A stretch of DNA of 64,000 nucleotides. Origin: a virus (taxonomy: Duplodnaviria > Heunggongvirae > Uroviricota > Caudoviricetes). Each line of letters starts with the position of its first letter. Position 1 is the first letter of the stretch. Both the position numbers and the translations under genes were made by a program. The DNA lies in the IMG/VR virus record IMGVR_UViG_3300033077_000655; one strand, 5' to 3'. The notes beneath the pieces are model-generated. The model was not told the DNA's origin, did not search any database, and worked only from the letters and a program-made list of their open reading frames with translations. Below, one piece after another: positions 6,455 to 60,978 of the stretch.

Positions 6455-7617
6455 AACTCAGTAGCATAGTTGGATACCTAAATCACCTGGACAGTCTTGG
6501 GGTGGAGTCAGCTGTGACTCTGGGAGATTTAACCAACATCAGTCATGTTGTTCAAACTAGTCAGGTGCAGATCCCCGGCTTAACTGATGAATTGATTGCT
6601 GCACAAAGTCTTGTTGAACTATCTTTACAACAGTACCATCAGAAACTAAACAATATACGTCAAGCTGTGCAGAAATTGATTGAGCAGCACGAGCCAGAAT
6701 ATTTTGCCGCCAGTGAAGATCTTTATCAAAGTATGCAGACGGACACACCTGACTACATACGGAATCGAATCTTGCCCATTGATACTGATAAGAAATTGAT
6801 GTTGCTGAATAGATTGCAAGTGCATTCTAACTGGAAGTATCCTGGATTGATGATCAGACCGGCGCATGGTCTCTGGCTTGAAAATTTAGTGGCGCTGGAT
6901 CCTATGTATTTTGCAGACACACACTGGGAGTTGCTTGCTCCGGTCATTGATCAATATACTCCAGAATATCAACGTAGGATACGGCGACATGTGATTGAAG
7001 AATATACAGATCAACCAGTATTTAAAAATCTACCTCAACAGCAGTTTGGATTTGTGTATGCATTTGGTTATTTTAATTTCAAACCATTAACAATCATCAG
7101 GCAATATTTGCGTGAAGTTTTTGGATTGCTGCGCACCGGCGGCACATTTTTGTTTAGTTTCAACAATTGCGACCATCAACATGCAGTGGGACTAACTGAG
7201 CATCATTTCTGTTGCTATACTCCGGGTAGATTGGTATATGAATATGCTCTAGAGCTAGGCTATGAGATTGTGCATGAAGGATCAGTAGATGGTGCCAATA
7301 CCTGGGTAGAGTTAAAGAAGCCAGGTATCATGACCACGATTCGTGGTGGACAAGCACTGGCTGCAATTGTTAACAAACCAATACCAGTAACTGGTCCAGA
7401 AGTAGTTGACATTTCCATCAAACAAATTTATAATAGCTTAGACCTAGACAAGTTACTCGAACTGGCCAAAACACTGACCATTGACATTTCGGCTGCCACC
7501 AGCAAAGGTATGTACAGTATTAAAAAAGTTCGAACAACTATAGATAACTTTCTGGATGAACATAACTTTCCAGAAGAACAACTGCAACAATTATTTAACA
7601 AAAGGACCACAAAATGA
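6451..7617 (+). CDS. hypothetical protein
   Basis: ATGA overlap with the polymerase stop; 388 aa. Confidence 0.45.
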   Translation: MKLSSIVGYLNHLDSLGVESAVTLGDLTNISHVVQTSQVQIPGLTDELIAAQSLVELSLQQYHQKLNNIRQAVQKLIEQHEPEYFAASEDLYQSMQTDTPDYIRNRILPIDTDKKLMLLNRLQVHSNWKYPGLMIRPAHGLWLENLVALDPMYFADTHWELLAPVIDQYTPEYQRRIRRHVIEEYTDQPVFKNLPQQQFGFVYAFGYFNFKPLTIIRQYLREVFGLLRTGGTFLFSFNNCDHQHAVGLTEHHFCCYTPGRLVYEYALELGYEIVHEGSVDGANTWVELKKPGIMTTIRGGQALAAIVNKPIPVTGPEVVDISIKQIYNSLDLDKLLELAKTLTIDISAATSKGMYSIKKVRTTIDNFLDEHNFPEEQLQQLFNKRTTK

Positions 7618-8336
7618 AAGACCATCTCTTAGACCTAGTACAACACACATTTGATCTTGGATGTATTGACTTGATCAAAATCTCAGGCACCGATGCTGCC
7701 ACCGCAGTAAATGGTGTTGCTGCTGACAATTCAGTTATCTTGGAAGCACAATTTGCCAACCCTGTTGCTGAGTTTATTGGCACGTTTGGTATGCCCAATC
7801 TTGGTAAACTCAAGACCTTGCTTAACTTGCAAGAGTATCGTGAAGATGCCAAACTGGCCATCACACGCAGAACCACAGGTGAGCCTGATGGTATCAACTT
7901 TGAAAACAAAGATGGTGACTTCCGTAACAACTACAGATTCATGACCAGTGAAGTTGTGAATGACAAACTTAAAACTTTGAAATTCAAAGGTGTAAATTGG
8001 CACATCACTGTTGATCCCACAGTATCTGCTATTCAACGTTTGAAAATGCAGTTCCAGGCCAACTCCGAAGAAACAAACTTTCAAGTCAAAGTTGAAAACA
8101 AAAATCTAAAATTCTTCTTTGGAGATCATTCTACACACAGTGGTAATTTTGTGTTTCACCCTGACATTGTGGGAACACTTAAACGCACTTGGTCGTGGCC
8201 GGTGCAGCAAGTTATCAGCATATTGGGACTGGTTGGTGACAAGACCATGAAGATCAGTGATGACGGCTGTATGCAAATCACAGTGGATTCCGGCCTGGCC
8301 GTTTACAACTACATTTTACCTGCACAAACCAAGTGA
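7614..8336 (+). CDS. hypothetical protein
   Basis: ORF with overlapping start. Confidence 0.45.
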   Translation: MKDHLLDLVQHTFDLGCIDLIKISGTDAATAVNGVAADNSVILEAQFANPVAEFIGTFGMPNLGKLKTLLNLQEYREDAKLAITRRTTGEPDGINFENKDGDFRNNYRFMTSEVVNDKLKTLKFKGVNWHITVDPTVSAIQRLKMQFQANSEETNFQVKVENKNLKFFFGDHSTHSGNFVFHPDIVGTLKRTWSWPVQQVISILGLVGDKTMKISDDGCMQITVDSGLAVYNYILPAQTK

Positions 8337-9877
8337 TCAACCAAGACAATCTCACAGCCAAGCAACTGGACTATGCCGTTTTTCTTCCGGCCATCTCGGG
8401 ATTCTATGCCACGTTTGTGGGCAAGCAACGTAATGGACCTTATGTAGATCCTGCACGCATGCCAGCCGGACTGACTGACATGGAAATGATGAACTGGCTC
8501 AACAGTACCAAAGCATTGTTTCCGTACAAGTGGAGTTTGTATTCAGGTGGGCATGCCAATCTAGATCTTGCCAAGCAAGACTGGTCGGAAGACATGGTTC
8601 GCAATCGTGAACCTGGCACATTCATGCTAGGCGACTCGGGCGGATTCCAGATTGCCAAAGGCTTGTGGGAAGGTGATTGGAAAGCCAACTCAGGCTGTGC
8701 CAAAGCACAAAAGAAACGTGCTGCTGTGTTAACATGGCTGGACAGTGTGAGTGATTACGGAATGATCTTGGATATTCCTACCTGGGTTATTCATGACAAG
8801 AAAGCATCCAAGGCCTGTCAGATCACCACACTGCAAGAAGCAGTGGATGCTACCAAGTTCAACAATGAATACTTTATGGCCCATCGCCGGGGCAAAGAAA
8901 ACGGTGGTGCCAAGTTCTTGAATGTTTTGCAAGGTGACAATCATACTTCAGCAGAACAATGGTATCAGGAAATGAAAGACTTTTGCGATCCTATAAAGTA
9001 TCCCAACACACACTTTGATGGGTGGAGCATGGGTGGACAAAACATGTGCGATGTGCATCTGGTACTCAAACGACTGGTGGCTCTGCGACATGATAACTTA
9101 CTGCAACAGGGCAAGCACGATTGGATGCACTTCTTGGGCACATCAAAGCTGGAATGGGCAGTATTGCTTACGGTGATTCAGCGAGCCATTAGAAAATATG
9201 TTAACCCTGCCTTTACCATATCGTTTGATTGTGCCAGTCCATTTTTAGCCACTGCAAATGGACAAGTATATCATCACATTGATCTGGCACACAACGAAAA
9301 GTGGTGCTATAGAATGAGCCCTATTGCAGATGACAAGAAATACAGCACAGACACAAGACCTTATGGTACAGCAGTGGTAGCAGATGGCCTGGTCAATCAC
9401 TTTGATGAAAGCCCACTCAGTCGATTATTGACCATGAAGGATATATGCATCTACCGGCCCGGTGATCTAAACAAGATTGGTAAAGAAGGCAAAACAAGTT
9501 GGGATTCATTCTCGTATGCATTGTTGATGGGTCATAATGTTTGGATGCACCTGGAGGCAGTACAACGTGCCAATCGTACATTTGATTCTGGATCATGGCC
9601 TTACATGATGTGGGACGAAAAAGGTGATCACACTCACTTTGCAGACATTGTGGAGGCTATCTTTGCCACCGACGATCGTGCAGAGTCAGAAGCCATAATT
9701 GAATCCTACAACAGATACTGGATGGATATTATTGGTACTCGCGGATTCAAAGGCAAAAAGGCCATGAATGCCAATACACAGTTTTCGGCATTATTTGATG
9801 TGGTAGAGGTTGACTCAGACTCTGAAGATATGTTAAACTCTGAAGCATTACAACAACTTGAACAGGATCAAGTATGA
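8333..9877 (+). CDS. dpdA: tRNA-guanine transglycosylase-like protein, candidate DpdA-type 7-deazaguanine DNA transglycosylase
   Basis: Contains the LGDSGGFQIAKG motif matching the TGT-family catalytic DSGGFQ block. Lies in the same operon-like run as folE, queD and queE. Confidence 0.55.
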   Translation: MINQDNLTAKQLDYAVFLPAISGFYATFVGKQRNGPYVDPARMPAGLTDMEMMNWLNSTKALFPYKWSLYSGGHANLDLAKQDWSEDMVRNREPGTFMLGDSGGFQIAKGLWEGDWKANSGCAKAQKKRAAVLTWLDSVSDYGMILDIPTWVIHDKKASKACQITTLQEAVDATKFNNEYFMAHRRGKENGGAKFLNVLQGDNHTSAEQWYQEMKDFCDPIKYPNTHFDGWSMGGQNMCDVHLVLKRLVALRHDNLLQQGKHDWMHFLGTSKLEWAVLLTVIQRAIRKYVNPAFTISFDCASPFLATANGQVYHHIDLAHNEKWCYRMSPIADDKKYSTDTRPYGTAVVADGLVNHFDESPLSRLLTMKDICIYRPGDLNKIGKEGKTSWDSFSYALLMGHNVWMHLEAVQRANRTFDSGSWPYMMWDEKGDHTHFADIVEAIFATDDRAESEAIIESYNRYWMDIIGTRGFKGKKAMNANTQFSALFDVVEVDSDSEDMLNSEALQQLEQDQV

Positions 9878-10380
9878 TACGAGCAGGACACGACGATGTG
9901 GCATTCTTCACCGGCACAGAAGTAGAACACACACCCGCATTTGGTAAAAAGACATTGTTTGTAGTAGGCTTGCAGACAGCAGATGATATTGCTGCTCACA
10001 TGCAAGGTTGCGAACATATCTACTTTGGTGCCAATCACAGTTTTCCCAACATCAACACCGACGATTATGTCAAGTGGTCCCGATGGCAAGATATGATTTA
10101 TCCCTTGTTAGATCTTGGTTATCTATGTACATTGGATATCAATGTTGCTCAAGTGGAGGGAATGTTAGAAGGTTCATTCACCGAGTATCACAACTTCATC
10201 CCAATGATATCAGTCAAGCTACCATACATCAAACTGTTAGGCTATAACGCCACACTCAAGCTGGATGACAAGGATTTTGCTGCTACCAACCCAGGCGTTT
10301 GGTGTCACAGCATACATGAACTACAAAAACGAGACCACTTTACTGACTGGTCTAAATATACCAAGGATCAAGTATTATGA
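9874..10380 (+). CDS. hypothetical protein
   Basis: ORF with overlapping start, inside the deazaguanine module. Confidence 0.4.
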   Translation: MIRAGHDDVAFFTGTEVEHTPAFGKKTLFVVGLQTADDIAAHMQGCEHIYFGANHSFPNINTDDYVKWSRWQDMIYPLLDLGYLCTLDINVAQVEGMLEGSFTEYHNFIPMISVKLPYIKLLGYNATLKLDDKDFAATNPGVWCHSIHELQKRDHFTDWSKYTKDQVL

Positions 10381-10829
10381 ATGAACGCAATCAAGCCTTG
10401 GCTGACTCCCGCAAACAAATTAAAAATCATGCAACACGTACAATCTTTGTACGATTCCAAAAGGAAGGCATTCATTGCTATCCAGCAGCAGCTACAGATC
10501 CTGCACTGGCCACAGGTGATGAATACGATGTATCTTTCTTAGCAAGCCCACACCGTCACATATTTCACTTTGAAGTGACCATACAAGTATTCCACAACGA
10601 TCGTGATATTGAGTTTATTCAATTCAAACGCTGGTTAGAAAATCTCTATGCCGGTGGCACATTAGAACTCAACTACAAGAGTTGTGAAATGATCAGCGAT
10701 GATTTGTATGAACAAATTGCTGCTCGCTATCCGGAACGTGGCATCATTATCAGTGTAAGCGAAGATGGTGAAAACGGTGCAACAATCAGTTATAATCTAA
10801 CACAACCTTATCAATCAATCAAACTCTAA
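10377..10829 (+). CDS. hypothetical protein
   Basis: ORF with overlapping start. Confidence 0.4.
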   Translation: MNERNQALADSRKQIKNHATRTIFVRFQKEGIHCYPAAATDPALATGDEYDVSFLASPHRHIFHFEVTIQVFHNDRDIEFIQFKRWLENLYAGGTLELNYKSCEMISDDLYEQIAARYPERGIIISVSEDGENGATISYNLTQPYQSIKL

Positions 10830-10838
10830 GAGGAAACT

Positions 10839-11063
10839 ATGGCTAAAATTATTATCAAAAGCAATCCACGTACTGAACAAACCTGGGAGGAACTGGATCA
10901 ATATCGTGAGTTTTGCGTAGACTACGGATACAAGTTCAATGAGGCGGATCTGTATAACTTCCGCAGTTATGCATTCCAACAGTTCAACAAACATACTCAA
11001 GGCAAGCCTGCCAAGAACATGTGGGATGAAGACACTCGTCGACTGGCAGGATACCGCACATGA
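10839..11063 (+). CDS. hypothetical small protein
   Basis: RBS aggaaact precedes the ATG. Confidence 0.35.
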   Translation: MAKIIIKSNPRTEQTWEELDQYREFCVDYGYKFNEADLYNFRSYAFQQFNKHTQGKPAKNMWDEDTRRLAGYRT

Positions 11064-12229
11064 GAAAACTCTACTACATGGGACTAGAGCCCTATAAAGC
11101 ACGTTATACATTGCAATTGCAAGACTGGAATACTGCGGTGTTTGGTAAAAGAGGCATCAACTATGTTGTTGTGCCCGGTGAAACACTCAGCAACGACCAA
11201 GCAATTGTTACTGGGCAAGTGCTAGATGCCCACGGTCGAACATACTTTGGTATGAGTCAACTTATGAATCTAGTTAAGATGATGAAGGCCGGAGAACTCA
11301 ACAATGAAGATGTTATCTACTTTGAGGACATGTTTCAACCTGGCATTGAATCATTACCGTATATTCTTAAACAAATCGACCCAATTTTCAGGCCTAGGAT
11401 TTATGTTCGCTGTCTTGCTCAGTCCATTGATCCTGATGATTTTGTTCACGTTTGGGGTATGCAGCATTTTATGGCAGCATATGAGTACATGGTTGACTCG
11501 TTCGTAGATGGTATACTTGCTACCAATGAAGAAATGGTAATGCACATGAAGATTGCAGGGTGGGGTGCCCCAATCTATAATATCTCAGGATTGGCATTTG
11601 GCAAGAGTGAAGTACAAAGTCGTGTGGATAGTATCAAACCATTCAACGACCGTAAATTTCGTGTGGTATTTTCTGCACGTTGGGATCAAGAAAAGCAACC
11701 GGACTTTTACATGGATTTAGCAGAACGTGTGAAAGAAAAGAGTCCATTGATTGAGTTTTGTGTATGTAGTGGTAGTAAATTAAAATCCAATAATGATAGT
11801 TACATGGCACGTACTAGAGATTTGCAAGATCGAGGTATATTAACAATTTACGAAGATTTAGAAAAGAATGATTACTACAATATTGTTAATGACAGTCGTG
11901 TTGTGTTTAATTGTGCCCTTCAAGACTGGGTTTCAAACACGGTCTCGGAAGCAGATGCTCTTGGGTGTAATGTTCTATACCCTGCTTATCGTAGTTTCCC
12001 TGAGACTTTTAGTAATGATCATTCCAGACTTTATGTACCCTGGTCAATAGAAGACGCAGAAGCAAAATTGATTCCGTTATTGTATAATCCAAGTCCTAAC
12101 ATGGGCAAGATTAGTGACCGTAATGATAGCACTATAGACAGAATCTGTGATATACTTGAGGGCAAGGGCGAAGATATGCTGCGAATGGGCGTGGACTATC
12201 GCAAGCACACTCGAGAAAGCAAATACTAA
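11060..12229 (+). CDS. glycosyltransferase-like protein (GT-B C-terminal domain-like)
   Basis: C-terminal half has alternating beta-alpha character with acidic residues, typical of group-1 GTs. Weak. Confidence 0.4.
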   Translation: MRKLYYMGLEPYKARYTLQLQDWNTAVFGKRGINYVVVPGETLSNDQAIVTGQVLDAHGRTYFGMSQLMNLVKMMKAGELNNEDVIYFEDMFQPGIESLPYILKQIDPIFRPRIYVRCLAQSIDPDDFVHVWGMQHFMAAYEYMVDSFVDGILATNEEMVMHMKIAGWGAPIYNISGLAFGKSEVQSRVDSIKPFNDRKFRVVFSARWDQEKQPDFYMDLAERVKEKSPLIEFCVCSGSKLKSNNDSYMARTRDLQDRGILTIYEDLEKNDYYNIVNDSRVVFNCALQDWVSNTVSEADALGCNVLYPAYRSFPETFSNDHSRLYVPWSIEDAEAKLIPLLYNPSPNMGKISDRNDSTIDRICDILEGKGEDMLRMGVDYRKHTRESKY

Positions 12230-12230
12230 A

Positions 12231-13184
12231 ATGACTGTGGTAGTAACTGGTGCAGCAGGATATATTGGTGGGCAAATAGCATTGGCCTTGAAGGATTCTG
12301 GTCATGAGGTCATTGGCATTGATCGTCGACCGTGCCCCAAACACCTCGACGAAGCGTTTATTAAGTTTATTCAAGCTGACTTTGACAGTGATCAAGCCAA
12401 AACAAAAATGTTGCAAGTTGGTCCTGCCACAATCATCCACTGTGCCGGCACTAGTTTGGTAGGCCCTAGCGTTAAATATCCCGGTGACTACTATCACAAC
12501 AATGTGATTAAAACCATCCACTTGTTGGATTTTGTGGTCAATGCCTTGCCCAAGACCAGAATTATCTTTAGTTCAAGTGCATCTGTGTATGGCGAACCTA
12601 TCATGACTCCGTGTGCAGAAGTAGATCCGTGTGCGCCTATGAGTCCTTACGGTGAAAGCAAACACATGATTGAACAAGTGTTAGCTAGCTATCATCGTGC
12701 ATACCGTCTTGACTATGTGGCATTTCGTTACTTCAATGCTTGCGGTGCCGATCGACTGGGCCGACATGGACAGGAACCTGGTGCCACTCATGTGATTGCT
12801 AGAATCTTAGAAGCCACACGTGATAACAAACAGTTTTCCTTGTATGGTGATGATTACGAGACCCACGACGGAACTTGTATACGTGATTATGTGCATGTGG
12901 AAGATATTGCGCATGCTCATGTGTGTGCATTGGACGCTGCTGTGCCCTCTGGCGTTTACAATCTAGGCACAAACAATGGTACCAGTGTGAAAGAAATCTT
13001 GGCATGCGCTGCTGCAATTGCAGGCAAGGTGCCAGTATTGCTAGAGCCTCGACGTGAGGGTGATCCTGCTGTGCTTACTGCTAGTGCAGCAAAGTTTGGT
13101 ATGCTGATGCCAAATTGGCGTCAGTACACACTGGACGATATAATTCAACACGCATGGGCTTGGTATGTTCGAAAAAATCCTTGA
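12231..13184 (+). CDS. NAD-dependent epimerase, UDP-glucose 4-epimerase (GalE)-like
   Basis: Begins MTVVVTGAAGYIGG (Rossmann GxxGxxG); YFNACGA motif. Start moved to the ATG at 12231, directly after the upstream stop. Confidence 0.75.
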   Translation: MTVVVTGAAGYIGGQIALALKDSGHEVIGIDRRPCPKHLDEAFIKFIQADFDSDQAKTKMLQVGPATIIHCAGTSLVGPSVKYPGDYYHNNVIKTIHLLDFVVNALPKTRIIFSSSASVYGEPIMTPCAEVDPCAPMSPYGESKHMIEQVLASYHRAYRLDYVAFRYFNACGADRLGRHGQEPGATHVIARILEATRDNKQFSLYGDDYETHDGTCIRDYVHVEDIAHAHVCALDAAVPSGVYNLGTNNGTSVKEILACAAAIAGKVPVLLEPRREGDPAVLTASAAKFGMLMPNWRQYTLDDIIQHAWAWYVRKNP

Positions 13185-13761
13185 ATTTGAACGGGCACTA
13201 GCCCGGTTCACTGGTGCTCCTGCTGCAATCATGACCGATTGCTGCACACATGCCATTGAGATGTGTCTGCGATATGAGCAAGTGAAGGGTCTCAAGATGA
13301 CTCCTTACACTTACTTGAGTGTGCCTATGACCATGCACAAGTTAGGCATTGATTATGTGTATCTGGATGAACCTGAACAAACATGGTCGGGCGAATACAA
13401 TTTCATATACACTAGAGTTTGGGATAGTGCTAGAAGATTGGAACCTGACATGTATCGTACAGGACAGATGCAATGCTTGAGTTTTGGACATTCTAAGCCT
13501 TTACAAATAGGGCATGGTGGTGCTATACTGTTAGATAACAAGCAGGCCTACAACATGATAATAAAACAACGATATGATGGTCGTGACCTAAATATCTCAC
13601 CCTGGAACAAACAAAAAACATTCCAGGTGGGATATCACTACAAACCCTCAATCGAAGATGCTGAACGTGGACTAGAGTTACTTGAGCAGTACAAGTCTGC
13701 ACCTGAACACCCCAAGTTTGTACAGTATCCAGATTTGCGAAACATAACCATTAAGGAATAA
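13165..13761 (+). CDS. DegT/DnrJ/EryC1-like aminotransferase fragment (short)
   Basis: N-terminus FERALARFTGAPAAIMTDCCTHAIEMCL resembles sugar aminotransferases. Only 198 aa, so truncated or divergent. Confidence 0.4.
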   Translation: MFEKILEFERALARFTGAPAAIMTDCCTHAIEMCLRYEQVKGLKMTPYTYLSVPMTMHKLGIDYVYLDEPEQTWSGEYNFIYTRVWDSARRLEPDMYRTGQMQCLSFGHSKPLQIGHGGAILLDNKQAYNMIIKQRYDGRDLNISPWNKQKTFQVGYHYKPSIEDAERGLELLEQYKSAPEHPKFVQYPDLRNITIKE

Positions 13762-13762
13762 C

Positions 13763-14551
13763 ATGCCAGAATTTAAACTAGATCCAATCATACATCCAAG
13801 CACTGACGAGTTTGTTCCGCTAGAAGGACAAAACTTATATGTAAAGAAAACAGACACAGCACAAGGCCGGTATCTAAGCACAGCAATTCGCGAACGTATG
13901 CAAGCAGATGGCAAGAGATTCTGGGCCGGAGACAACATCAGCGACTACTTAACTAAATCTGATCGAGAACATTTGATCAATGAAGCTACTGTGGCATTTG
14001 AAGGTGTGTTGGACACATTGCTGATAGATAGACAAAACGATCCCAACTCAAAAGGCACAGCCAAACGATTGGCCAAAATGTATTTTACTGAAATCATGGA
14101 AGGTCGATATGAACCAGCACCGGACGCAACAGCTTTTCCAAATGATTCACAAGACCGGTATGAAGGCATGCTTGTGGTTAGAAGTGAACTACGTTCAATG
14201 TGTTCGCACCATCATCAACCTGTTAGCGGTGTTGCTTATATTGGTATTATTGCCGCCAACAAACTTATTGGTTTGTCTAAGTATACTCGTATTGCTCAAT
14301 GGTGTGCGCGACGCGGTACGCTACAAGAAGAACTGTGCAACGACATTGCAAGAGAGATTAGCAAAGCCACTGACAGTGAGAATGTTGGTGTGTACATTGA
14401 AATGACACACGGATGCGTAGAAAATAGAGGAGTAATGGCTCATAATAGTCTAACACAAACCACTGTGCTCAAAGGTGCTTTCTTAAAAGACCCAGGAACA
14501 AAGAAAGAGTTCTTTGACAATATTAAACTACAAGCAAGGAATGGCAACTAA
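13763..14551 (+). CDS. folE: GTP cyclohydrolase I (FolE)
   Basis: Motifs CSHHHQPVSGVAYIGI and IGLSKYTRI match the FolE active site. Confidence 0.85.
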   Translation: MPEFKLDPIIHPSTDEFVPLEGQNLYVKKTDTAQGRYLSTAIRERMQADGKRFWAGDNISDYLTKSDREHLINEATVAFEGVLDTLLIDRQNDPNSKGTAKRLAKMYFTEIMEGRYEPAPDATAFPNDSQDRYEGMLVVRSELRSMCSHHHQPVSGVAYIGIIAANKLIGLSKYTRIAQWCARRGTLQEELCNDIAREISKATDSENVGVYIEMTHGCVENRGVMAHNSLTQTTVLKGAFLKDPGTKKEFFDNIKLQARNGN

Positions 14552-14627
14552 CTCAAATTATGATAAAACTTAAAATTGGCTGCTGTAAAAACAGTGGTAT
14601 CAAACTACAACAAGAGTTTGCACCGCG

Positions 14628-15032
14628 ATGATCAATTACGAAACACTAGATGAAGCCCAAGCTGCCGGTGTGGCACCGTGGGACCAACAGGTACAAGAAC
14701 TGAGTGATTTTCATATCACTGTGTTTGAAGATCGCTATCCTGTCACACGTGGTCATTTGTTGTTTGTGCCCAACTACAATACTGATGCAGTGATTATTGA
14801 CTGCATGGAATCTGCCATGTTGTATGGTCGCCGCTTGGTAGAACAAGGCAACTGTGAAGGATTTAACATTGGTATCAACATGGGCACTGCTGCTGGACAA
14901 ACAGTTATGTATCCACATGTGCATTTGATTCCACGCCGGCTGGGTGACACTGCCAATCCTGTTGGCGGGGTGCGTGGAGTTATATTTGGACAAGCTGACT
15001 ATAAAGCCACAGGTTATCAACCACCGATATAA
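14628..15032 (+). CDS. HIT-like nucleotide hydrolase/transferase
   Basis: YPHVHLIPR histidine-triad-like motif. Confidence 0.4.
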   Translation: MINYETLDEAQAAGVAPWDQQVQELSDFHITVFEDRYPVTRGHLLFVPNYNTDAVIIDCMESAMLYGRRLVEQGNCEGFNIGINMGTAAGQTVMYPHVHLIPRRLGDTANPVGGVRGVIFGQADYKATGYQPPI

Positions 15033-15086
15033 ATACTCATACACCGGCCTTTGGCGTTCATCCCGGTATACAAACTCTGCTGCCTA

Positions 15087-15095
15087 TGCTATAAT
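15087..15095 (+). promoter_or_regulatory. extended -10 element TGcTATAAT upstream of queD
   Basis: TGCTATAAT at 15087-15095, about 20 nt before the queD start. Confidence 0.35.
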
Positions 15096-15112
15096 CAACA
15101 TAGGAGAAAATC

Positions 15113-15586
15113 ATGGCAAAATACATTTCCACAAAAACATACAAACAAATAGGTCCAGTGGCCTATCGTCAATGGCGGGCCGATAGTCATTGCAGACTGA
15201 TACACGGATATGCACTTTCATTCCATCTGGAGTTTGAATGTAATACACTGGATGCTCGAAATTGGTGCATGGACTTTGGAGGACTTAAACCTCTCAAAGG
15301 ATTATTGGAAGATTGGTTTGATCACACATTGCTAGTGGCACAAGATGACCCAATGCGTGAACATCTGTTAGAACTTGGTAGATTGAAACTGGCCAAGATT
15401 ACAGAAGTGGAACGCACAGGTTGCGAGGGTATTGCTGACTTTTTGTATGAATACATCAACACTATTTTTTTGCCAAACTGCGGAGAAAAAGAACGTGTTT
15501 GGTGCAGTAGGGTAGAAGTTCGAGAAACTGATGCCAATATGGCCATGCGTGTGGGGCACAGAGAAGATAACGAATTCCAAAACTAA
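15113..15586 (+). CDS. queD: 6-carboxytetrahydropterin synthase (QueD/PTPS-like)
   Basis: CRLIHGY motif of the Cx3HGH type; PTPS size; adjacent to folE and queE. Confidence 0.7.
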   Translation: MAKYISTKTYKQIGPVAYRQWRADSHCRLIHGYALSFHLEFECNTLDARNWCMDFGGLKPLKGLLEDWFDHTLLVAQDDPMREHLLELGRLKLAKITEVERTGCEGIADFLYEYINTIFLPNCGEKERVWCSRVEVRETDANMAMRVGHREDNEFQN

Positions 15587-16416
15587 TGGACATTAGTATT
15601 TTATTGCCCACCCGGGCTCGGTCTGATGCTCTCATGAGCAGCATTGAAAGTCTTTACAATCTTGCTGACAATCCAAATACCATTGAATTTTTGTTTGGTA
15701 TAGACAATGATGATGTAGCAGGCATGGAAAATATGCTGCATAATGTGATTCCCTGGATTGAAAAATACTCAGTAAATCACAAGATAGTCGTATCTGAACG
15801 ATTTGGGTATGTTAAACTACACAAGTATTTCAATGGCCTAGCAGAGCATAGTCAAGGATCTTGGTTGTTTATCTGGAATGATGATGCTGTGATGAAAACC
15901 AAATCATGGGATACCAAGATCCTTGAAAAGTCTGGACAGTTTAAACTACTAAGTGTGCATTCACACAATGACCATCCTTATAGCATATTCCCTATCATAC
16001 CAAGAGCATGGTTTGAGGTGTTAGGGCATCTAAGTCAACACAGTTTGAATGATGCTTATGTGAGTAACATTGCATATTATCTAGACATATTTGAACGTAT
16101 TGATGTACATTGTGATCACGATCGATTTGATATAACAGGTGCCAACAATGATGATACATACAATCAACGTGAAATCATGGAGGGCTATCCGGATCGGGCT
16201 GGAGACTTTAATCATCCTGATATGGTGCAACTACGTCTCAACGATTTAATAACCTTGGCAAATTGGATGCAAACTCAAGGCATGGATACTGAATTTTTCA
16301 CTGATTGTTGTAACAACACCCAGGATCCATGGGTTAAATTACGTGCCAATGATACAAACAATCAAGTCTCTATCTTTCAGGTTGGGCGGGGTCAAAACAA
16401 ATCAATCACTGAGTAA
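15586..16416 (+). CDS. GT-A-like glycosyltransferase candidate (paralog A)
   Basis: LLPTRAR...GIDNDD pattern resembles GT2 IPTYNR...DxD. Paralogous to 18471..19316. Confidence 0.4.
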   Translation: MDISILLPTRARSDALMSSIESLYNLADNPNTIEFLFGIDNDDVAGMENMLHNVIPWIEKYSVNHKIVVSERFGYVKLHKYFNGLAEHSQGSWLFIWNDDAVMKTKSWDTKILEKSGQFKLLSVHSHNDHPYSIFPIIPRAWFEVLGHLSQHSLNDAYVSNIAYYLDIFERIDVHCDHDRFDITGANNDDTYNQREIMEGYPDRAGDFNHPDMVQLRLNDLITLANWMQTQGMDTEFFTDCCNNTQDPWVKLRANDTNNQVSIFQVGRGQNKSITE

Positions 16417-16458
16417 TTAGTTTTATATAATTCAGAATCCAGATACAATAAGTATATA

Positions 16459-18465
16459 ATGAAGAACAAAATTGCCTGGGTTCAACCCAATTTCCAACAA
16501 GGGCCTGCAGAGTTTAATGCATATTACTTGCCCTACTCAGCCGGTGTGGTATGGAGTTACAGTCTAGCTGATCCTTGGATTCGAGAACGGTTTGAAGCCA
16601 CTGATTGGGTATGGCGTAGAGACGCTGTAGAACCATTGGCACAAAAACTGGCACAAAACGACATTGTGACTTTTAGTACCTATGTGTGGAATCATCGTTA
16701 CAATTATGCTGTGGCCAAACGCATCAAGGAAATCAATCCTGCTGTATTGACTGTATTTGGTGGCCCTGAAGTTGCTATAACCGACCCTGACCTGTTTGTT
16801 AAAGAATCTTTTATGGATCTTGTGATTTGCTACGAAGGCGAAATAACTTTCAAACGTGTGCTACAGCACTTTGAAACTAAAGATTGGGAAAATGTACCTG
16901 GACTGTTGATCAACAGAAATGGCCGCGCAATACAAACACAGGATTCTAAACGTATTGAGTCATTAGAGGAAGTGCCCAGCCCGTACTTGGCAGGCATCTT
17001 TGACCAGATGATTGCCGATCATCCTGACATAACATGGCAAGGCACATTAGAAACCAATCGTGGTTGTCCGTTTGCTTGTACATTCTGTGACTGGGGTAGT
17101 TTGACCTACAACAAAGTTAAAAAGTTTGAACTTGAACGTGTGTTTGAAGAACTAGAATGGATGGCCAAACGCAACTTTGATTGGATCTCAATTACCGATG
17201 CTAACTTTGGTATGTTCCCCGAACGTGATGGTATGATTGCTGACAAGATAATTGAGTGCCAAGAAAAATACGGTTCTCCACGCACGTTTAGTGTGGCCTG
17301 GGCTAAAAATCAAAAGAAAGAAGTGATCGACATTGTAAAGAAACTGTTGGATGCTCGTGGCTTCAATCAAGGATTAACACTCAGTGTACAAAGCCTTGAC
17401 CAGGATGTGTTGGAAAATATTCGCCGCAAAAATATGGAAATGAACAAACTGGAGGAAGTGTTTGAATTATGTGATCAGCGTAATATTCCTGCATACACAG
17501 AACTCATACTTGGGTTGCCTGGTGAGACATTGACCACCTGGAAGAAAAACTTTTATGCATTGTACGAGTTAAATCAGCACACTGGCATTACTGTGTTTCA
17601 AGCGCAGTTGTTGGAAAATGCCGAAATGAACTTGTTGCAAAAGAAACTGTTCAAGATCACCAGCCAACCTGTTACAGATTACTTTGCTGGCAGTTACAGC
17701 GTGGAACACATTGAAGAAAGCATTGACGTTATCACCGGCACCAAAGACATGCCCACACCAGTGATGTTGGATGCACAGATCTTTTCCTGGTTCCAGACCA
17801 CATTCCACATAAATGGATTTGCCACATTGATTGCTAGATTTATCAACAAATACACAGGTATAAGTTACAATGATTACTATGAAGAGTTGTTTGCATATTT
17901 TATGACCAATGAGTGGTTGAAGAAAGAACAAAACGAAGCAAGACAATACTTTTCTAATTGGATGACCACTGGCCGAATCAACCATCCCAAGATTGGTGTG
18001 GAAATACACGGGTGGAACATCATACACAGAACCAGCATGAACATGCATCAAGAAGATCGGGTAGATGAGTTGTATGATTTCTTGGAAATATTTTTGCAAC
18101 GATACAATCTACCCGAAGATTTATCAACCAGTCTGATGAAACTACAAAGAAGTTACTACATCAAGTACAATGATAGAAATCAATATCCTATGAATCTTAA
18201 GTTAGATTATAATATTTGGGATTACTTGAGTTTTAATCAACCCTTGACAAAGACTTCTACAACATATCGATTGGACTTTCCAGAGGATAAAACTATGAGT
18301 CTTAATCGATTCTTAGAACTGTTTTATTTTGCAAGACGCAGAAACTTTGGTAAAGCCACTGTGGATCTTGTGGGAGTCGAAAATGCCAATGGAACACAAC
18401 GTGGTGCTGGGAGTGCCAAAGCACAAGGCAGTTTTTCTGTGAAGAAAAAATTATTAACCATATAA
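16459..18465 (+). CDS. B12-binding-domain radical SAM protein
   Basis: NRGCPFACTFCDW (Cx3Cx2C) follows an N-terminal Rossmann-like B12-binding-like domain. Confidence 0.7.
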   Translation: MKNKIAWVQPNFQQGPAEFNAYYLPYSAGVVWSYSLADPWIRERFEATDWVWRRDAVEPLAQKLAQNDIVTFSTYVWNHRYNYAVAKRIKEINPAVLTVFGGPEVAITDPDLFVKESFMDLVICYEGEITFKRVLQHFETKDWENVPGLLINRNGRAIQTQDSKRIESLEEVPSPYLAGIFDQMIADHPDITWQGTLETNRGCPFACTFCDWGSLTYNKVKKFELERVFEELEWMAKRNFDWISITDANFGMFPERDGMIADKIIECQEKYGSPRTFSVAWAKNQKKEVIDIVKKLLDARGFNQGLTLSVQSLDQDVLENIRRKNMEMNKLEEVFELCDQRNIPAYTELILGLPGETLTTWKKNFYALYELNQHTGITVFQAQLLENAEMNLLQKKLFKITSQPVTDYFAGSYSVEHIEESIDVITGTKDMPTPVMLDAQIFSWFQTTFHINGFATLIARFINKYTGISYNDYYEELFAYFMTNEWLKKEQNEARQYFSNWMTTGRINHPKIGVEIHGWNIIHRTSMNMHQEDRVDELYDFLEIFLQRYNLPEDLSTSLMKLQRSYYIKYNDRNQYPMNLKLDYNIWDYLSFNQPLTKTSTTYRLDFPEDKTMSLNRFLELFYFARRRNFGKATVDLVGVENANGTQRGAGSAKAQGSFSVKKKLLTI

Positions 18466-18470
18466 AATAA

Positions 18471-19316
18471 TTGTTAAAAATTATGGATTTTAATTTCGAG
18501 TATGATATCGGGGTGTTGTTGCCTACCCGAGGAAGAACCACCGCACTAATGACCAGTGTGAAATCACTGTATGATCATGCAGCTGATCCCAAGTCAATGA
18601 GATTACTATTGGCATTTGATCAAGACGATTCAGTTGGACTGGAATATTTTAACACTGATTTAAAACCATGGTTAGATTTGATCGGTGCAGAATATTTGGC
18701 TTTGAATTTTGTTCCGTTAGGCTATATACGCCTGAATGAATATGTGAATTTCTTGGCAAAACACGTTGATGCTCGATGGTATCTAGTCTGGAACGATGAT
18801 GCAGTAATGACCACTCCCCATTGGGATAACGTGATTCGACAATACAACGATCAATTTGCATTGCTGCGAGCAGAAACCAATCATGATCATCCATATGCTA
18901 TTTTTCCTATCCTGCCAAAAAAATGGTTAGAACTTACCGGACACATATCACCACATCAACTCAATGATGCGTGGACCAGCCAGGTTGCATGGATGTTGGA
19001 CGTTGTGATTACTATACCTGTGATGATCGAACACCAACGATTTGATCTCACCGGCAAGAATGGTGACGATGTGTTTATGAATCGTCCTATGCTAGAAGGT
19101 AATCCTACACATACTAGAGATTTTAATCATATTTCATGGCGTATGCGCCGACAGGATGATGCTGCAAAGATTGCACATTATTTGGAAAAATTAGGATATG
19201 ACCTGACACATTTTAAATTGGGTATAGAAAACAAAATTGACATCTGGCATAAGATGTTGAAATTAGACACCAAGGGGCTAATGAAATCATGGAGCAGCAC
19301 TGATCTTGAAAAATGA
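18471..19316 (+). CDS. GT-A-like glycosyltransferase candidate (paralog B)
   Basis: VLLPTRGR...AFDQDD; clear paralog of 15586..16416, including shared HNDHPY, IFPI and HQRFD blocks. Confidence 0.4.
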   Translation: MLKIMDFNFEYDIGVLLPTRGRTTALMTSVKSLYDHAADPKSMRLLLAFDQDDSVGLEYFNTDLKPWLDLIGAEYLALNFVPLGYIRLNEYVNFLAKHVDARWYLVWNDDAVMTTPHWDNVIRQYNDQFALLRAETNHDHPYAIFPILPKKWLELTGHISPHQLNDAWTSQVAWMLDVVITIPVMIEHQRFDLTGKNGDDVFMNRPMLEGNPTHTRDFNHISWRMRRQDDAAKIAHYLEKLGYDLTHFKLGIENKIDIWHKMLKLDTKGLMKSWSSTDLEK

Positions 19317-20085
19317 ACTTGTAGACCGAATTAAACAGTATTGGAATACTCAGCCTTGCAACGTCAAGCACAGTCTTAGTGTTCCGGGCACAGAACAGTA
19401 TTGGAATGAAGTTTCCAAACGTAGATTCTTTGTAGAACCCCATCAATTTGACTTTGCTAGCTTTAATCTTTGGCACGGTAAACGTGTTTTAGAAATAGGA
19501 TCCGGAATCGGAACCCATGCTGTGGAGTTTGCACGTCACGGTGCTGACTATGTGGGGATCGATCTTTCAGCAGAGTCGGTGGCCATGAGTCAACAACGAT
19601 TTGAACTGTTTGGATTAACTGGCAAATTCCATGTGATGGATGGCGCCGACTCTGCTGCGGTTGCTGGTCTAGGAAAATTTGATCTAGTATACAGTTGCGG
19701 GGTATTGCACCACTATCCGGACATGACCGCTTGTTTGAATAACATCCATGCTGCATTAGTACCCAACGGAGAGTTCCGTATGTTGGTATACGCAAAGAAC
19801 TCATGGAAGTACGCCATGATCCAAAAAGGTCTAGATCAATTTGAAGCACAAGCAGATTGCCCGTATGCCAAGGCCTATAGCAAAGAAGAAATTTATGATC
19901 TCTTAAAAGGACAATTTGAGGTACAAAGCATTAGACAAGATCATTGTTTCATGTATAATGTAGTTAAGTATCGCACTGGCGAGTACGAATTGGAGCCTTG
20001 GTTTGCTGCCATGCCCGAAGACATGCGAGCAGCAGTTAAAGAATATCTAGGTTGGCATTTGTTAATTAAAGCACAAAAAATATGA
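19306..20085 (+). CDS. class I SAM-dependent methyltransferase
   Basis: VLEIGSGIGTHAVEF motif I and DLVYSCGVLHH. Confidence 0.65.
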   Translation: MKNELVDRIKQYWNTQPCNVKHSLSVPGTEQYWNEVSKRRFFVEPHQFDFASFNLWHGKRVLEIGSGIGTHAVEFARHGADYVGIDLSAESVAMSQQRFELFGLTGKFHVMDGADSAAVAGLGKFDLVYSCGVLHHYPDMTACLNNIHAALVPNGEFRMLVYAKNSWKYAMIQKGLDQFEAQADCPYAKAYSKEEIYDLLKGQFEVQSIRQDHCFMYNVVKYRTGEYELEPWFAAMPEDMRAAVKEYLGWHLLIKAQKI

Positions 20086-20945
20086 GCAAACTAAAAGTAG
20101 CAGAATTGTTTTACTCAATTCAAGGGGAAGGTAGATATATGGGGGTACCCAGCGTCTTCTTGAGAACTTTTGGCTGCAATTTTTCTTGCAAGGGCTTCGG
20201 CATGCCACGTGGCGAACTCAGCAAGGAAGCTGATGAAGTAGCAGTAATGAATGCCATGCATCGATTTGAGAAATATGAAGAACTTCCACTTGTTAGCACA
20301 GGATGTGACAGCTATGCTAGTTGGCATCCTGACTTCAAGAATCTAAGTCCCATGCTGACCAGTGATGCTATCGTAGATCGCATTATGGATATTATTCCGT
20401 ACAAAGAATGGCGTGACGAGCATCTTGTGATCACAGGTGGCGAGCCATTGCTAGGCTGGCAACGTGCATATCCTAGTTTATTAGACAATCCCAAGATGGC
20501 AAGTCTTAAAGAAATTACGTTTGAAACCAATGGTACTCAAGAACTCAGCACTGAGTTTAGAAAGTATTTGTTAAATTGGACACTAGGTAACAAGGCACGT
20601 GGCCGAGAAGCATTGACATTTAGTGTGAGTGCTAAACTGCCTTGTTCAGGTGAGAAGTGGTCGGATGCTATTTGTCCTGAGATTGTGTGTCAATATCAAG
20701 ATGTTGGGCACACATACTTGAAACTGGTAATTTCTACCAATGAAGATTTTGCAGATGCTCAACGTGCAGTGGCAGAATATCGTGCAGCTGGATTCAAGGG
20801 TCATGTGTATTTGATGCCTGTTGGTGGAGTTGAAAGTGTATATGCGTTGAACAATAAGAATGTAGCTATTTTGGCCATGAATCATGGTTGGCGTTACAGT
20901 GATCGACTTCAAGTACCATTGTTCAAGAACGAATGGGGCACCTGA
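20082..20945 (+). CDS. queE: 7-carboxy-7-deazaguanine synthase (QueE)-like radical SAM
   Basis: N-terminus AELFYSIQGEGRYMGVPSVFLRTFGCNFSC resembles QueE. Confidence 0.65.
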   Translation: MSKLKVAELFYSIQGEGRYMGVPSVFLRTFGCNFSCKGFGMPRGELSKEADEVAVMNAMHRFEKYEELPLVSTGCDSYASWHPDFKNLSPMLTSDAIVDRIMDIIPYKEWRDEHLVITGGEPLLGWQRAYPSLLDNPKMASLKEITFETNGTQELSTEFRKYLLNWTLGNKARGREALTFSVSAKLPCSGEKWSDAICPEIVCQYQDVGHTYLKLVISTNEDFADAQRAVAEYRAAGFKGHVYLMPVGGVESVYALNNKNVAILAMNHGWRYSDRLQVPLFKNEWGT

Positions 20946-22069: not shown

Positions 22070-22797
22070 GGCTGTACGTCAACGGCGATAGCCATACAGC
22101 AGGTGCAGAAGCAGTATCACCGGCAGCATTTGCCGAGGATGATGGCCATCCTGAACTGGGGCGCCGACCACATCCTGCTAATCTAGCAGTAAGCTGGGGA
22201 CAACAACTGGCTGACAAATTAGGCATTGAATTGGTATGTGATGCTGAATCTGCTGCATCTAACTACAGAATTCTTCGTACCACACGAAACTGGATGAATA
22301 GTTTACAGCCCTGGGAATCGGCGGTGGCAATCATACAGTGGAGCACTTGGGAGCGCGAAGAGTGGTTGCACAATGGTGAATACTTGCAAGTAGGCAGTTC
22401 GGGTCTGGATTTGGTTCCTGACGAACTAGCGGATCAGTACAAGCGATTTGTAGTTGGTGTAGATTGGACTTGGTGCCAACAATACTGGCACGATGAGATT
22501 TGGCAACTGCATCAGGACCTGGATGCAGCAAAGATCCCGCATGTGTTCTTTAACGGCAACAATTCATTTGATCGAATCCGTAATGGTGCCTGGCACCAAG
22601 TTGATTGGAACAACGCATACATCGCACCATATTCAGAATACACTTACGATCATATACTACGTGAAGCCAATTTTGTCACGGTGAATCCTGAGTCCTGGCA
22701 TTTCGGTAAAGATGCCCATTGCTTTTGGGCTGAATTTGTGTTACAATACTGTATAGAAAACAATATATTGGATCCCCATGCGATATCTCTTGATTGA
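22066..22797 (+). CDS. SGNH/GDSL-like hydrolase candidate
   Basis: N-terminus LYVNGDSHTAG resembles SGNH block I. Paralogous to the interrupted gene at 45596-46245. Confidence 0.45.
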   Translation: MRLYVNGDSHTAGAEAVSPAAFAEDDGHPELGRRPHPANLAVSWGQQLADKLGIELVCDAESAASNYRILRTTRNWMNSLQPWESAVAIIQWSTWEREEWLHNGEYLQVGSSGLDLVPDELADQYKRFVVGVDWTWCQQYWHDEIWQLHQDLDAAKIPHVFFNGNNSFDRIRNGAWHQVDWNNAYIAPYSEYTYDHILREANFVTVNPESWHFGKDAHCFWAEFVLQYCIENNILDPHAISLD

Positions 22798-56814: not shown

Positions 56815-56817
56815 TCT

Positions 56818-59251: not shown

Positions 59252-59261
59252 GGAAAATAAC

Positions 59262-59834: not shown

Positions 59835-59875
59835 TATGAGAAAAGTTTGTTCTTTAATGAAACAATAATGAAAGA

Positions 59876-60972: not shown

Positions 60973-60978
60973 GAATCC

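Follow-up and report, generated by a model that had tools for sequence, protein, structure and literature searches.

The 64,000-nucleotide stretch of viral DNA considered here (IMG/VR virus record IMGVR_UViG_3300033077_000655; Caudoviricetes), called the window throughout, carries between about positions 8333 and 20945 a run of genes for the synthesis of 7-deazaguanines, together with a divergent guanine transglycosylase of the DpdA type, designated DpdAx. Exchange of guanine for 7-deazaguanine is a major route by which phages get past restriction enzymes and CRISPR, and it is also the target of some modification-dependent nucleases. The region is probably the guanine-replacement module of an uncultivated jumbo phage related to PA5oct, in which FolE, QueD and QueE would feed DpdL and then base exchange by DpdAx. 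This kind of system is already known as the DpdL-type 7-deazaguanine DNA modification of phages.

From 3.8 to 24 kb, every long open reading frame is on the + strand, and the frames follow one another so closely that many overlap by 4 bp at start and stop, an arrangement far beyond chance. The module sits inside a replication block that starts with a family-B DNA polymerase gene (polB) and ends with a 5'-3' exonuclease/RNaseH gene, and the block is syntenic with that of the Pseudomonas jumbo phage PA5oct. A megablast search with 13 kb of the window against 50,697 phage records gave no nucleotide-level match, and no structured RNA or riboswitch was found in the cluster at Rfam gathering thresholds. 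The genes of the block are as follows.

3788-6454, + strand: family-B DNA polymerase (polB)
7614-8336, + strand: phrog_12062 protein, named from its PHROG match
8333-9877, + strand: DpdAx, divergent DpdA-type guanine transglycosylase, 514 residues, GTG start
9874-10380, + strand: partner protein "X168", 168 residues, partial beta/alpha barrel with QueE as its best structural match
10377-10829, + strand: DpdL homologue, QueD-like T-fold, 150 residues, motif LASPHRHIF
10839-11063, + strand: conserved 74-residue reading frame between DpdL and GT, no family match
11060-12229, + strand: GT, a GT-B/GT4-like glycosyltransferase (GT1-like), just under the Glycos_transf_1 cut-off
12228-13184, + strand: GalE, UDP-glucose 4-epimerase (NCBIfam TIGR01179)
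13165-13761, + strand: short DegT/DnrJ-like protein, 198 residues (Pfam PF01041)
13763-14551, + strand: FolE, GTP cyclohydrolase I (Pfam PF01227, PHROG 2197)
14628-15032, + strand: HIT-family protein, motif HVHLIPR (Pfam PF01230, 3.8e-8)
15113-15586, + strand: QueD-like 6-carboxy-tetrahydropterin synthase of the PTPS family (PF01242, PHROG 2389)
15586-16416, + strand: putative glycosyltransferase GTa (PHROG 14945 'glycosyltransferase', 7.3e-14)
16459-18465, + strand: cobalamin-binding radical S-adenosylmethionine (SAM) protein of the KedN5-like C-methyltransferase class (Pfam B12-binding and Radical_SAM)
18471-19316, + strand: GTb, a paralogue of GTa (PHROG 14945, 2.8e-7)
19306-20085, + strand: class I SAM-dependent methyltransferase (Pfam Methyltransf_12/25/23/11/31, about 1e-16)
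20082-20945, + strand: QueE-like 7-carboxy-7-deazaguanine synthase, radical SAM (PHROG 2076)
22778-23800, + strand: 5'-3' exonuclease/RNaseH

An earlier note on this DNA had proposed a phage 7-deazaguanine DNA-modification module from the DSGGFQ block of the 8333 reading frame, a GTP cyclohydrolase I with CSHHH and GLSK motifs, a QueD-like PTPS, a QueE-like radical SAM protein and the lack of an adjacent QueC or QueF. Each of these features is borne out by the results given below, and the core of the proposal is supported by the gene set, the fold of the transglycosylase and the conservation of the locus. The gene list was right for the four genes that it named and had overlooked DpdL at 10377-10829. 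Nor was there any remark on the interleaved glycosyltransferase, GalE, B12-radical-SAM and methyltransferase genes, of which the glycosyltransferase proves to be a conserved partner of DpdL.

The DpdAx transglycosylase

The translation of the DpdAx gene includes FMLGDSGGFQIAKG. The DSGGFQ block occupies residues 101-106 (nucleotides 8633-8650; GDSGGFQ, residues 100-106), and the putative nucleophile is Asp299 in the motif SFDCASPF. The kinship with tRNA-guanine transglycosylases (TGT) and DpdA that the earlier note had read from this block is missed by Pfam TGT, PHROGs and PDB sequences, and is recovered by comparison with a DpdA2 profile and by structure. As a single sequence, DpdAx has no match in Pfam (E<0.01), in PHROGs or, by phmmer, among PDB sequences, and a profile of its family also finds nothing among PDB sequences. 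A DpdA2 profile run against the PDB is likewise empty, so that mapping of residues to the TGT of Zymomonas mobilis via sequence is impossible. Membership of the TGT superfamily is visible solely by profile-profile comparison and structure.

When a 57-member DpdAx profile is compared by hhalign with an alignment of DpdA2 proteins (ACP17, BUCT-ZZ01, X1, nt-1, Moby and pf16), the two families match at 97.3% probability (E 2e-11) over 185 columns, which span DSGG[FL]Q, D-IP, QG, HxLG and S[FY]D[CS]. The comparison pairs D101 of DpdAx with the Asp of VDSGGLQ, D147 with that of FDEIP and D299 with that of SYDS. An AlphaFold2 model built from the family alignment reaches a predicted local distance difference test score (pLDDT) of 90.6 and a predicted TM-score (pTM) of 0.91. 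Searched against the PDB with Foldseek, this model returns TGT, QTRT1 or ArcTGT structures for all of its top 21 matches, the best being 1s38 (E 1.8e-7, probability 1.00), followed by unrelated TIM barrels at E>0.01. Among the predicted viral structures of BFVD, the matches include the DpdA2 of nt-1 (1.6e-9), a 'tRNA guanine transglycosylase' of Achromobacter phage Motura, 'queuine tRNA-ribosyltransferases' of actinophages and uncharacterised phage proteins.

Residue conservation was taken from an alignment of 57 diverse members with 27-43% identity to the window protein. S71, D101, S102, G104, P149, H266 and D299 are invariant in 57/57 members, and D147, G201, G230, W231, L268 and G269 are nearly so. 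The family motifs GDSGGFQ, LDxP, LQG, GW, HFLG and SFDxASPF follow the order of the catalytic motifs of TGT. Because the profile-profile, PDB-structure and viral-model comparisons agree, the TGT fold and the catalytic aspartates of DpdAx can be regarded as established at the level of aligned sequences and a predicted structure.

The family is very large. At least 7382 of the best 8000 candidates scored at 90% clustering belong to it, and clustering at 50% leaves 953 representatives; none of the family matches listed carries a precomputed Pfam domain. That so large a family is invisible to Pfam and PHROGs suggests that guanine modification is undercounted in environmental jumbo phages. Among the 50,697 phage records, relatives of DpdAx occur only in eleven PA5oct-like Pseudomonas jumbo phages, Sinorhizobium phage Phosso and Vibrio phage 2.275.O, and all of them are labelled 'hypothetical protein'.

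The families bDpdA and DpdA1-4 were defined by Cui, Hutinet et al. in Nucleic Acids Research in 2023 (PMC10516641). BLASTP of DpdAx against the DpdA2 of ACP17 gives only E=0.42. A tblastn search with ACP17 DpdA2 finds 71 records, none of them from PA5oct, Phosso or the 2.275.O group, and the phage records found in the reverse search from DpdAx likewise do not overlap with the DpdA2 list. From these comparisons DpdAx is read as a sister or remote lineage of DpdA2 rather than a member of it. Assignment to DpdA3, the phiST type, was considered and dropped: hhalign against CGPG_00065 gives 66% probability over 81 columns, BLASTP finds nothing, and the sizes differ (514 residues against 259). The literature searched, to which the supplementary tables of PMC10516641 did not belong, contains no DpdA5/6 or equivalent, and DpdAx is treated here, on its sequence, as a lineage of its own within the DpdA group. 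With respect to that literature, a DpdA lineage that is very large, has gone unannotated, diverges strongly and is without the zinc site of TGT is new.

Pathway genes, conserved partners and surroundings

Three of the pathway enzymes are recognisable from family profiles. FolE (PF01227: 130.7 bits against a cut-off of 27, 5.1e-38; PHROG 2197: 1.8e-44) carries both CSHHH and GLSK. The QueD-like protein (PF01242: 57.3 bits against a cut-off of 22.4, 2e-15; PHROG 2389: 2e-42) is 70% identical to the QueD of Acidovorax phage ACP17 and has the motif CRLIHGY, in which the last His of CxxxHGH is replaced by Tyr; this CxxxHGY variant is common to the QueD proteins of the window, phiST, ACP17 and BUCT-ZZ01. 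The QueE-like protein matches PHROG 2076 at 1.6e-48 and is 47% identical to the QueE of BUCT-ZZ01, with a Pfam Radical_SAM score of 23.9 against a cut-off of 29.5. Its cysteine motif is C32-x3-C36, an insert of about 38 residues and then C75 (GCDS). The same pattern is found in the QueE of X1, Moby and PA5oct (among the loci collected, in L004 from BUCT-ZZ01, L005, L007 and L001 from PA5oct), whereas the QueE of ACP17 retains the canonical CxxxCxxC.

The reading frame at 10377-10829 contains FLASPHRHIFHF, and its LASPHRHIF fits the signature LxxxHRHxF, which marks DpdL, the proposed decarboxylase of 7-carboxy-7-deazaguanine (CDG), and replaces the CxxxHGH of QueD (PMC10516641). It matches PHROG 17812 (1.2e-35), and by tblastn it is 56% identical to DpdL of ACP17 (2e-38), 37% to CGPG_00067 of phiST (4e-8), 57% to gp318 of PA5oct and 69% to its counterpart in Phosso. 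By motif and homology, this reading frame is identified as DpdL.

A tblastn search with two phage QueC proteins (E<1) found no QueC in 1.38 Mb of sequence, made up of the window, 87 related metagenomic or IMG/VR loci (L009-L095) and two PA5oct segments, and no QueF, amidotransferase or phosphoribosyltransferase is present among the remaining open reading frames of the window. The earlier note had pointed to 38166-39218 as the only PP-loop candidate. This 350-residue reading frame does hold the PP-loop-like string SGGPDS, but it was rejected as QueC: it has no match in Pfam, NCBIfam or PHROGs even at E<5, no PDB match and no phage homologue. A search space of 5.8 billion proteins yields only 6 clusters of close homologues, one of them 100% identical and on a 125-kb contig, against thousands for the transglycosylase family, and the sequence relations of this reading frame mark it as a lineage-restricted orphan outside the pathway.

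The conservation of the module was examined in eighty IMG/VR loci, found with a 12-sequence DpdAx alignment, whose DpdAx is 60-94% identical to that of the window. These loci were screened with the window proteins, and the denominator for each gene is the number of loci whose flanks reach far enough to show it.

Upstream of DpdAx: polB, 57/57 loci
Downstream of DpdAx: X168, 53/53 loci
Downstream of DpdAx: DpdL, 39/39 loci
Downstream of DpdAx: the GT1-like (GT4-like) gene, 28/28 loci
Downstream of DpdAx: GalE, 20/24 loci
Downstream of DpdAx: FolE, 15/17 loci

The 74-residue reading frame at 10839-11063 is kept in place in most related loci at 31-100% identity, and a 308-kb contig whose DpdAx is 82% identical to the window protein has the same interleaved gene order. 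In the distant contig L093, with a DpdAx of 35% identity, the order is DpdAx, DpdL (motif FLGYPHRHLF) and a 369-residue protein 41% identical to PA5oct gp317. PA5oct itself has polB, the phrog_12062 protein, gp316 (DpdAx; 34% identity to the window protein, 7e-72), gp317 (GT), gp318 (DpdL), gp322 (QueE) and RNaseH in this order, with DpdAx, GT, DpdL and QueE all within 5 kb.

The GT gene product scores 25.1 bits with Pfam Glycos_transf_1 against a cut-off of 26.4, and its family profile matches the GT4 structure 7ec7 at 2e-6. It has R207, E211-K212-x-P214 and a nucleotide-sugar motif of the SEADALGCNV type, and in six divergent members, including PA5oct gp317, the residues E10, R15-Y16-T17, Q67, D90, R207, E211-K212-x-P214, E297 and E315 are invariant. 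Used as a query, the window GT finds six phage records only, from BUCT-ZZ01 (64% identity), ACP17 (two), X1, BUDD and BCSR5, and 6/6 carry DpdL. PA5oct gp317 as a query adds eleven PA5oct-like phages and Phosso, and also five Xanthomonas and Erwinia phages without a detected DpdL. In two phage records the homologue is annotated as 'glycosyltransferase'.

In nine lineages (from the window, PA5oct-like phages, Phosso, ACP17, X1/BUDD, BCSR5, BUCT-ZZ01 and L093), GT is next to DpdL or no more than 3 kb away, irrespective of which DpdA is present and where it lies. The transglycosylase is DpdA2 in ACP17, X1 and BUCT-ZZ01 and DpdAx in PA5oct, Phosso and the window clade, and in Phosso the GT-DpdL pair stands 170 kb from DpdAx. 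Since the DpdA type varies among these phages, the tightest coupling is that of GT with DpdL. GT is undetected in about half of the DpdL-bearing lineages, including phiST, RHph_I1_18, Bakedbeans, Ahp1, D479 and Roos. Given that phiST lacks GT and yet has plain 2'-deoxy-7-deazaguanosine (dDG), GT is an add-on rather than a requirement for dDG.

X168 has QueE as its best structural match, which is weak (model pLDDT 72), and it lacks the CxxxCxxC radical-SAM iron-sulfur motif. Its homologues include PA5oct gp364, which lies away from the module, and ACP17 ASD50402, directly upstream of DpdA2; more than 7996 metagenomic homologues were found, with no Pfam domain among the matches listed. CGPG_00066 of phiST was tried as a counterpart of X168 and shows no similarity. 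GT and X168 probably either assist base exchange or elaborate the base further. Two points about partners are new with respect to the literature searched: the conserved association of the GT4-like protein with DpdL, and X168, with its weakly QueE-like fold, as a third partner.

Among the genes interleaved with the pathway, GalE (TIGR01179: 291.9 bits against a cut-off of 262.3; Pfam Epimerase: 3.8e-55) likely starts at ATG 12228 rather than at GTG 12147, and directly follows GT in most relatives, a neighbourhood that supports the supply of a nucleotide-sugar donor for GT. In the equivalent place in PA5oct, two genes downstream of DpdL and after gp319, lies gp320 (L001 15416-15934, 172 residues), which resembles the N-terminal Rossmann half of GalE (27% identity, 7e-9). 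The DegT-like protein matches PF01041 at 3.3e-13, with the match confined to the N-terminal part of the fold (positions 24-99 of the 360 in the profile); it is no frameshift artefact, because a length of about 196 residues is kept in relatives. The HIT protein, whose place between FolE and QueD is also kept in relatives, may act on nucleotides or sugar-nucleotides. The B12-radical-SAM protein at 16459-18465 matches NCBIfam NF033712 KedN5 at 2.3e-77, below the cut-off, and occurs in some relatives only. GTa has no Pfam match and is a clade-specific addition, and in relatives GTb cross-matches at the positions that GTa matches. Both were rejected as general partners of the pathway, the sole phage homologue of GTa being in the pelagiphage HTVC008M (Pelagibacter phage). 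In short, the DegT-like, HIT, GTa/GTb, B12-radical-SAM and methyltransferase genes are kept within the clade and absent from PA5oct and ACP17; the interleaving of sugar and radical-SAM genes with the pathway, as in this clade, is new with respect to the literature searched.

Sugar tailoring recurs at 55585-61988, in a cluster with no linkage to the deazaguanine genes. This second cluster comprises an NDP-hexose C-methyltransferase (PF08484), a 317-residue protein, a GT34 protein, an epimerase/dehydratase, two Methyltransf_24 proteins, a split transketolase-like thiamine pyrophosphate (TPP) enzyme (59876-60972) and a DUF6165 protein, a content that looks like branched-chain deoxysugar biosynthesis. 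Further radical SAM genes at 41985-42743, 48784-50310 and 50508-52154 flank or lie inside a tRNA array; two of the three have B12-binding domains, which with 16459-18465 brings the window to three cobalamin-type radical SAM proteins. Given this second cluster and the unlinked B12-radical-SAM genes, the tailoring genes of the module may serve virion or cell-surface glycans, and a link between them and the DNA base is possible but unproven.

Two observations concern nucleotide metabolism. A MazG/PRA-PH-like nucleoside triphosphate (NTP) pyrophosphohydrolase is encoded at 23932-24603, 3 kb downstream of QueE, and a role for it in depleting dGTP is conceivable; in phiST, a MazG/dUTPase-like gene adjoins DpdL (PMC10516641). 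In BUCT-ZZ01 an annotated xanthine-guanine phosphoribosyltransferase (L004 2748-3209) stands between QueE and QueD of the DpdL/GT/DpdA2 cluster, a hint that in some phages the pathway branches at the nucleotide level.

Elsewhere in the window, ARAGORN identifies 36 tRNA genes on the + strand at 32920-55444. Almost every amino acid is served by this set, and small open reading frames and radical SAM genes lie between its members. A permuted, two-piece transfer-messenger RNA (tmRNA) at 62007-62386 matches best to beta_tmRNA RF01850 (125 bits) and also to tmRNA_permuted RF04321, and has the tag peptide ANDSVYSLAA; the beta_tmRNA match suggests a betaproteobacterial host. Other genes encode a full-length TctA-family tricarboxylate transporter membrane subunit (35978-37282; PF01970, 1.5e-39), an RNA ligase with a PHA02142 OB domain (27324-28337) and a protein like the N-terminal domain of biotin-protein ligase (33618-34289); the last two count as further auxiliary genes of the block.

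Predicted product and competing explanations

With the gene identities, the fold, the residue conservation and the co-occurrence observed as above, we infer a substrate, a target and a product for the module. FolE would convert GTP to dihydroneopterin triphosphate (H2NTP), which QueD would turn into 6-carboxy-tetrahydropterin and QueE into CDG. Since neither QueC nor QueF is present, preQ0 and preQ1 would not be made. Instead, DpdL would strip the C7 carboxyl of CDG to leave 7-deazaguanine. On double-stranded phage DNA, DpdAx would then put this base in the place of guanine by a two-aspartate transglycosylation that uses Asp101 of DSGGFQ and Asp299 as the nucleophile, and the phage DNA would as a result resist restriction at G-containing sites. 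Both base exchange on DNA and the 7-deazaguanine substrate of DpdAx are predictions. The base itself is predicted to be 7-deazaguanine or a derivative, which may include a sugar, rather than CDG. The earlier note had left open CDG or a further-processed derivative; because DpdL is present, a decarboxylated base is likelier than CDG, and the second half of that wording fits.

A parallel for the product is phiST, in which a set of FolE, QueD, QueE, DpdL and DpdA3 without QueC accompanies replacement of 100% of dG by dDG, as measured by liquid chromatography-mass spectrometry (LC-MS); CDG was undetected in phiST, which alone among DpdL phages has been analysed by mass spectrometry (PMC10516641). 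A DNA target is supported because DpdA2 relatives modify DNA experimentally (PMC10516641) and because DpdAx stands beside polB in every locus examined. In addition, the DNA of PA5oct is experimentally resistant to restriction at G-containing sites, and END nucleases target PA5oct together with known 7-deazaguanine phages (PMC12191111). The transglycosylase of PA5oct is not named in that paper.

Several points weigh against this reading. Only 1/57 DpdAx family members reaches the TGT family PF01702, at E=0.006, and the zinc-binding CxCxxC...H of TGT is not conserved in the family; after the barrel there is no conserved Cys cluster, only a single semi-conserved Cys (GDxC) in two alignments. Activity is a prediction for the whole DpdAx family. 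FolE falls below its NCBIfam equivalog cut-off, the QueE-like protein matches all five NCBIfam QueE models below their cut-offs, and decarboxylation of CDG to 7-deazaguanine is a prediction for every DpdL. The window also encodes 36 tRNAs, among them Asp-GUC, Asn-GUU, His-GUG and two Tyr-GUA, and tRNAs of these four kinds are natural substrates of bacterial TGT. The genome is likely larger than 200 kb, of which 64 kb is covered, so that a distant QueC, QueF or other tailoring gene may exist. Finally, DpdL together with DpdA, from either phiST or ACP17, gave no dDG in E. coli, and Cui et al. suggest that further enzymes may be needed (PMC10516641).

Were the DpdL-like protein no decarboxylase, the inserted base would be CDG (as its deoxynucleoside, dCDG) or 7-amido-7-deazaguanine (dADG), which is improbable. 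This explanation draws on a pathway that stops at QueE, on the absence of QueC from the 1.38 Mb searched and on the purely predicted activity of DpdL, as well as on the low-efficiency insertion of CDG by the DpdA2 of VH7D and the presence of dCDG in STSV-2 DNA (PMC10516641). It is opposed by phiST, in which dDG replaces all dG and CDG was not detected (PMC10516641). Nor does it fit the strict retention of DpdL with the transglycosylase in 39/39 loci, in PA5oct and in L093, or the finding of no amidotransferase in the window and of no QueC-like gene. A target in RNA, whether the tRNA set of the phage or host tRNAs, as for bacterial TGT on tRNAs with GUN anticodons, is very unlikely, even with the tRNAs listed above and with closest solved structures that are all tRNA transglycosylases. 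The preQ1 and preQ0 substrates of tRNA exchange would not be made, QueC and QueF not having been found; DpdAx lies in the replication block beside polB in 57/57 loci; the nearest characterised relatives, DpdA2, act on DNA (PMC10516641); the PA5oct DNA itself is restriction-resistant at G-containing sites (PMC12191111); and phages of the KVP40 and nt-1 types also pair many tRNAs with a DNA-acting DpdA2.

Equally little credence is given to a pre-replicative route, in which polB would incorporate a deazaguanine deoxynucleotide and the TGT-like protein would serve in salvage or repair only. In phages with DpdA3, 100% of G is replaced, an unusual extent for an enzyme that acts after replication (PMC10516641), and the phosphoribosyltransferase annotated within the BUCT-ZZ01 cluster and the MazG-like genes near QueE in the window and beside DpdL in phiST would suit such a route. 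However, no phosphoribosyltransferase, nucleotide kinase or reductase for it was found in the window, and a strictly conserved transglycosylase adjoining polB points to base exchange. All known 7-deazaguanine DNA modifications were judged post-replicative by Cui et al. (PMC10516641).

The last alternative refines rather than replaces base exchange with 7-deazaguanine, and is held tentatively, as a possibility on the doubtful side: the product would be a glycosylated 7-deazaguanine, with GT adding a sugar from a donor supplied by GalE, and possibly with the extra glycosyltransferases, the B12-radical-SAM protein and the methyltransferase tailoring that sugar. The decarboxylated, electron-rich C7 is one possible attachment point. 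A shade more doubtful still is the specific claim that the GT4-like enzyme glycosylates 7-deazaguanine, as the free base or in DNA, at the C7 exposed by DpdL. Several observations fit a sugar on the base. GT accompanies DpdL in nine lineages and in 6/6 records matched by the window protein, its GT-B nucleotide-sugar motifs are conserved and its profile matches GT4 structures. GalE lies downstream in 20/24 loci, with a GalE-like N-terminal fragment in PA5oct; phiST, with plain dDG, has no GT, as expected of an add-on; and DpdL with DpdA from ACP17 failed heterologously when the neighbouring genes were left out (PMC10516641). Against this stand the DpdL-bearing lineages without a detectable GT, about half of the total, and the five phage records that have a GT-like gene and no detectable DpdL. 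The tailoring genes may serve other glycans, given the second sugar cluster at 55.5-62 kb and the unlinked B12-radical-SAM genes, GTa/GTb are unlinked to DpdL elsewhere, the literature searched reports no glycosylated purine in DNA, and the chemistry is conjecture.

Base exchange with 7-deazaguanine by DpdAx would have consequences for cultivated phages. In PA5oct, a candidate for therapy, gp316 is a candidate enzyme, and gp316-gp322 a candidate pathway, for the unexplained modified G. The failed reconstitution of dDG with DpdL and DpdA alone left out the GT-like protein and X168, which gives a testable reason for the failure; these two proteins are obvious candidates for the enzymes missing from the ACP17 experiment. 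Should the base prove to be acted on by GT, the cultivable phages PA5oct, ACP17 and X1 would open a new class of DNA hypermodification to experiment. It would be the first glycosylated purine hypermodification of DNA, a sugar-bearing deazapurine present in PA5oct-like and ACP17-like phages and in uncultivated jumbo phages, by the thousand, from fresh and marine waters. A hitherto unrecognised DpdA subfamily that needs GT and X168 as partners would insert it, and in the window clade its sugar would be tailored by GalE, the extra glycosyltransferases, the B12-radical-SAM C-methylase and the methyltransferase.

Comparison with known systems

Bacterial Tgt, represented by the Zymomonas mobilis structures 1s38 and 1q2r, shares with DpdAx the (beta/alpha)8 barrel, DSGGFQ and a nucleophile motif of the FDC type. 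The two proteins are 13-15% identical with a TM-score of about 0.54, and DpdAx has about 130 extra residues. Unlike Tgt, DpdAx has no conserved CxCxxC...H, and from its genomic context its target is predicted to be DNA and its substrate to differ from preQ1. Among phage systems, the dADG module of Campylobacter phage CP220 resembles that of the window in branching at CDG, and CP220 replaces G completely (PMC10516641). It does so with DpdA3 and a QueC-like amidating enzyme that makes 7-amido-7-deazaguanine, and has no DpdL, whereas the window has DpdL and no QueC-like gene.

The dDG module of phiST is closer. Like the window, it has FolE, QueD, QueE and DpdL without QueC or QueF, set beside a polymerase gene, and it shares the CxxxHGY variant of QueD and a homologous DpdL with LxxxHRHxF. 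It differs in its transglycosylase, a DpdA3 of 259 residues in place of a DpdAx of 514, and in lacking homologues of the GT4-like gene and X168, as well as the GalE, extra glycosyltransferase, B12-radical-SAM and methyltransferase genes of the window. In Acidovorax phage ACP17, the partners are present: homologues of X168 (ASD50402), GT (ASD50404), DpdL, QueD and QueE form one cluster beside polB. There the transglycosylase is instead a DpdA2 of the nt-1/VH7D type, QueE has the canonical CxxxCxxC, and neither GalE nor other sugar-tailoring genes occur.

PA5oct (Wroclawvirus) is without the full-length GalE and the DegT-like, HIT, GTa/GTb, B12-radical-SAM and methyltransferase genes of the window, and its DpdL motif has HFH in place of HRH. 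Its module genes, all annotated as 'hypothetical protein', nevertheless present the same arrangement of DpdAx (gp316), GT (gp317), DpdL (gp318) and QueE (gp322) between the same flanks.

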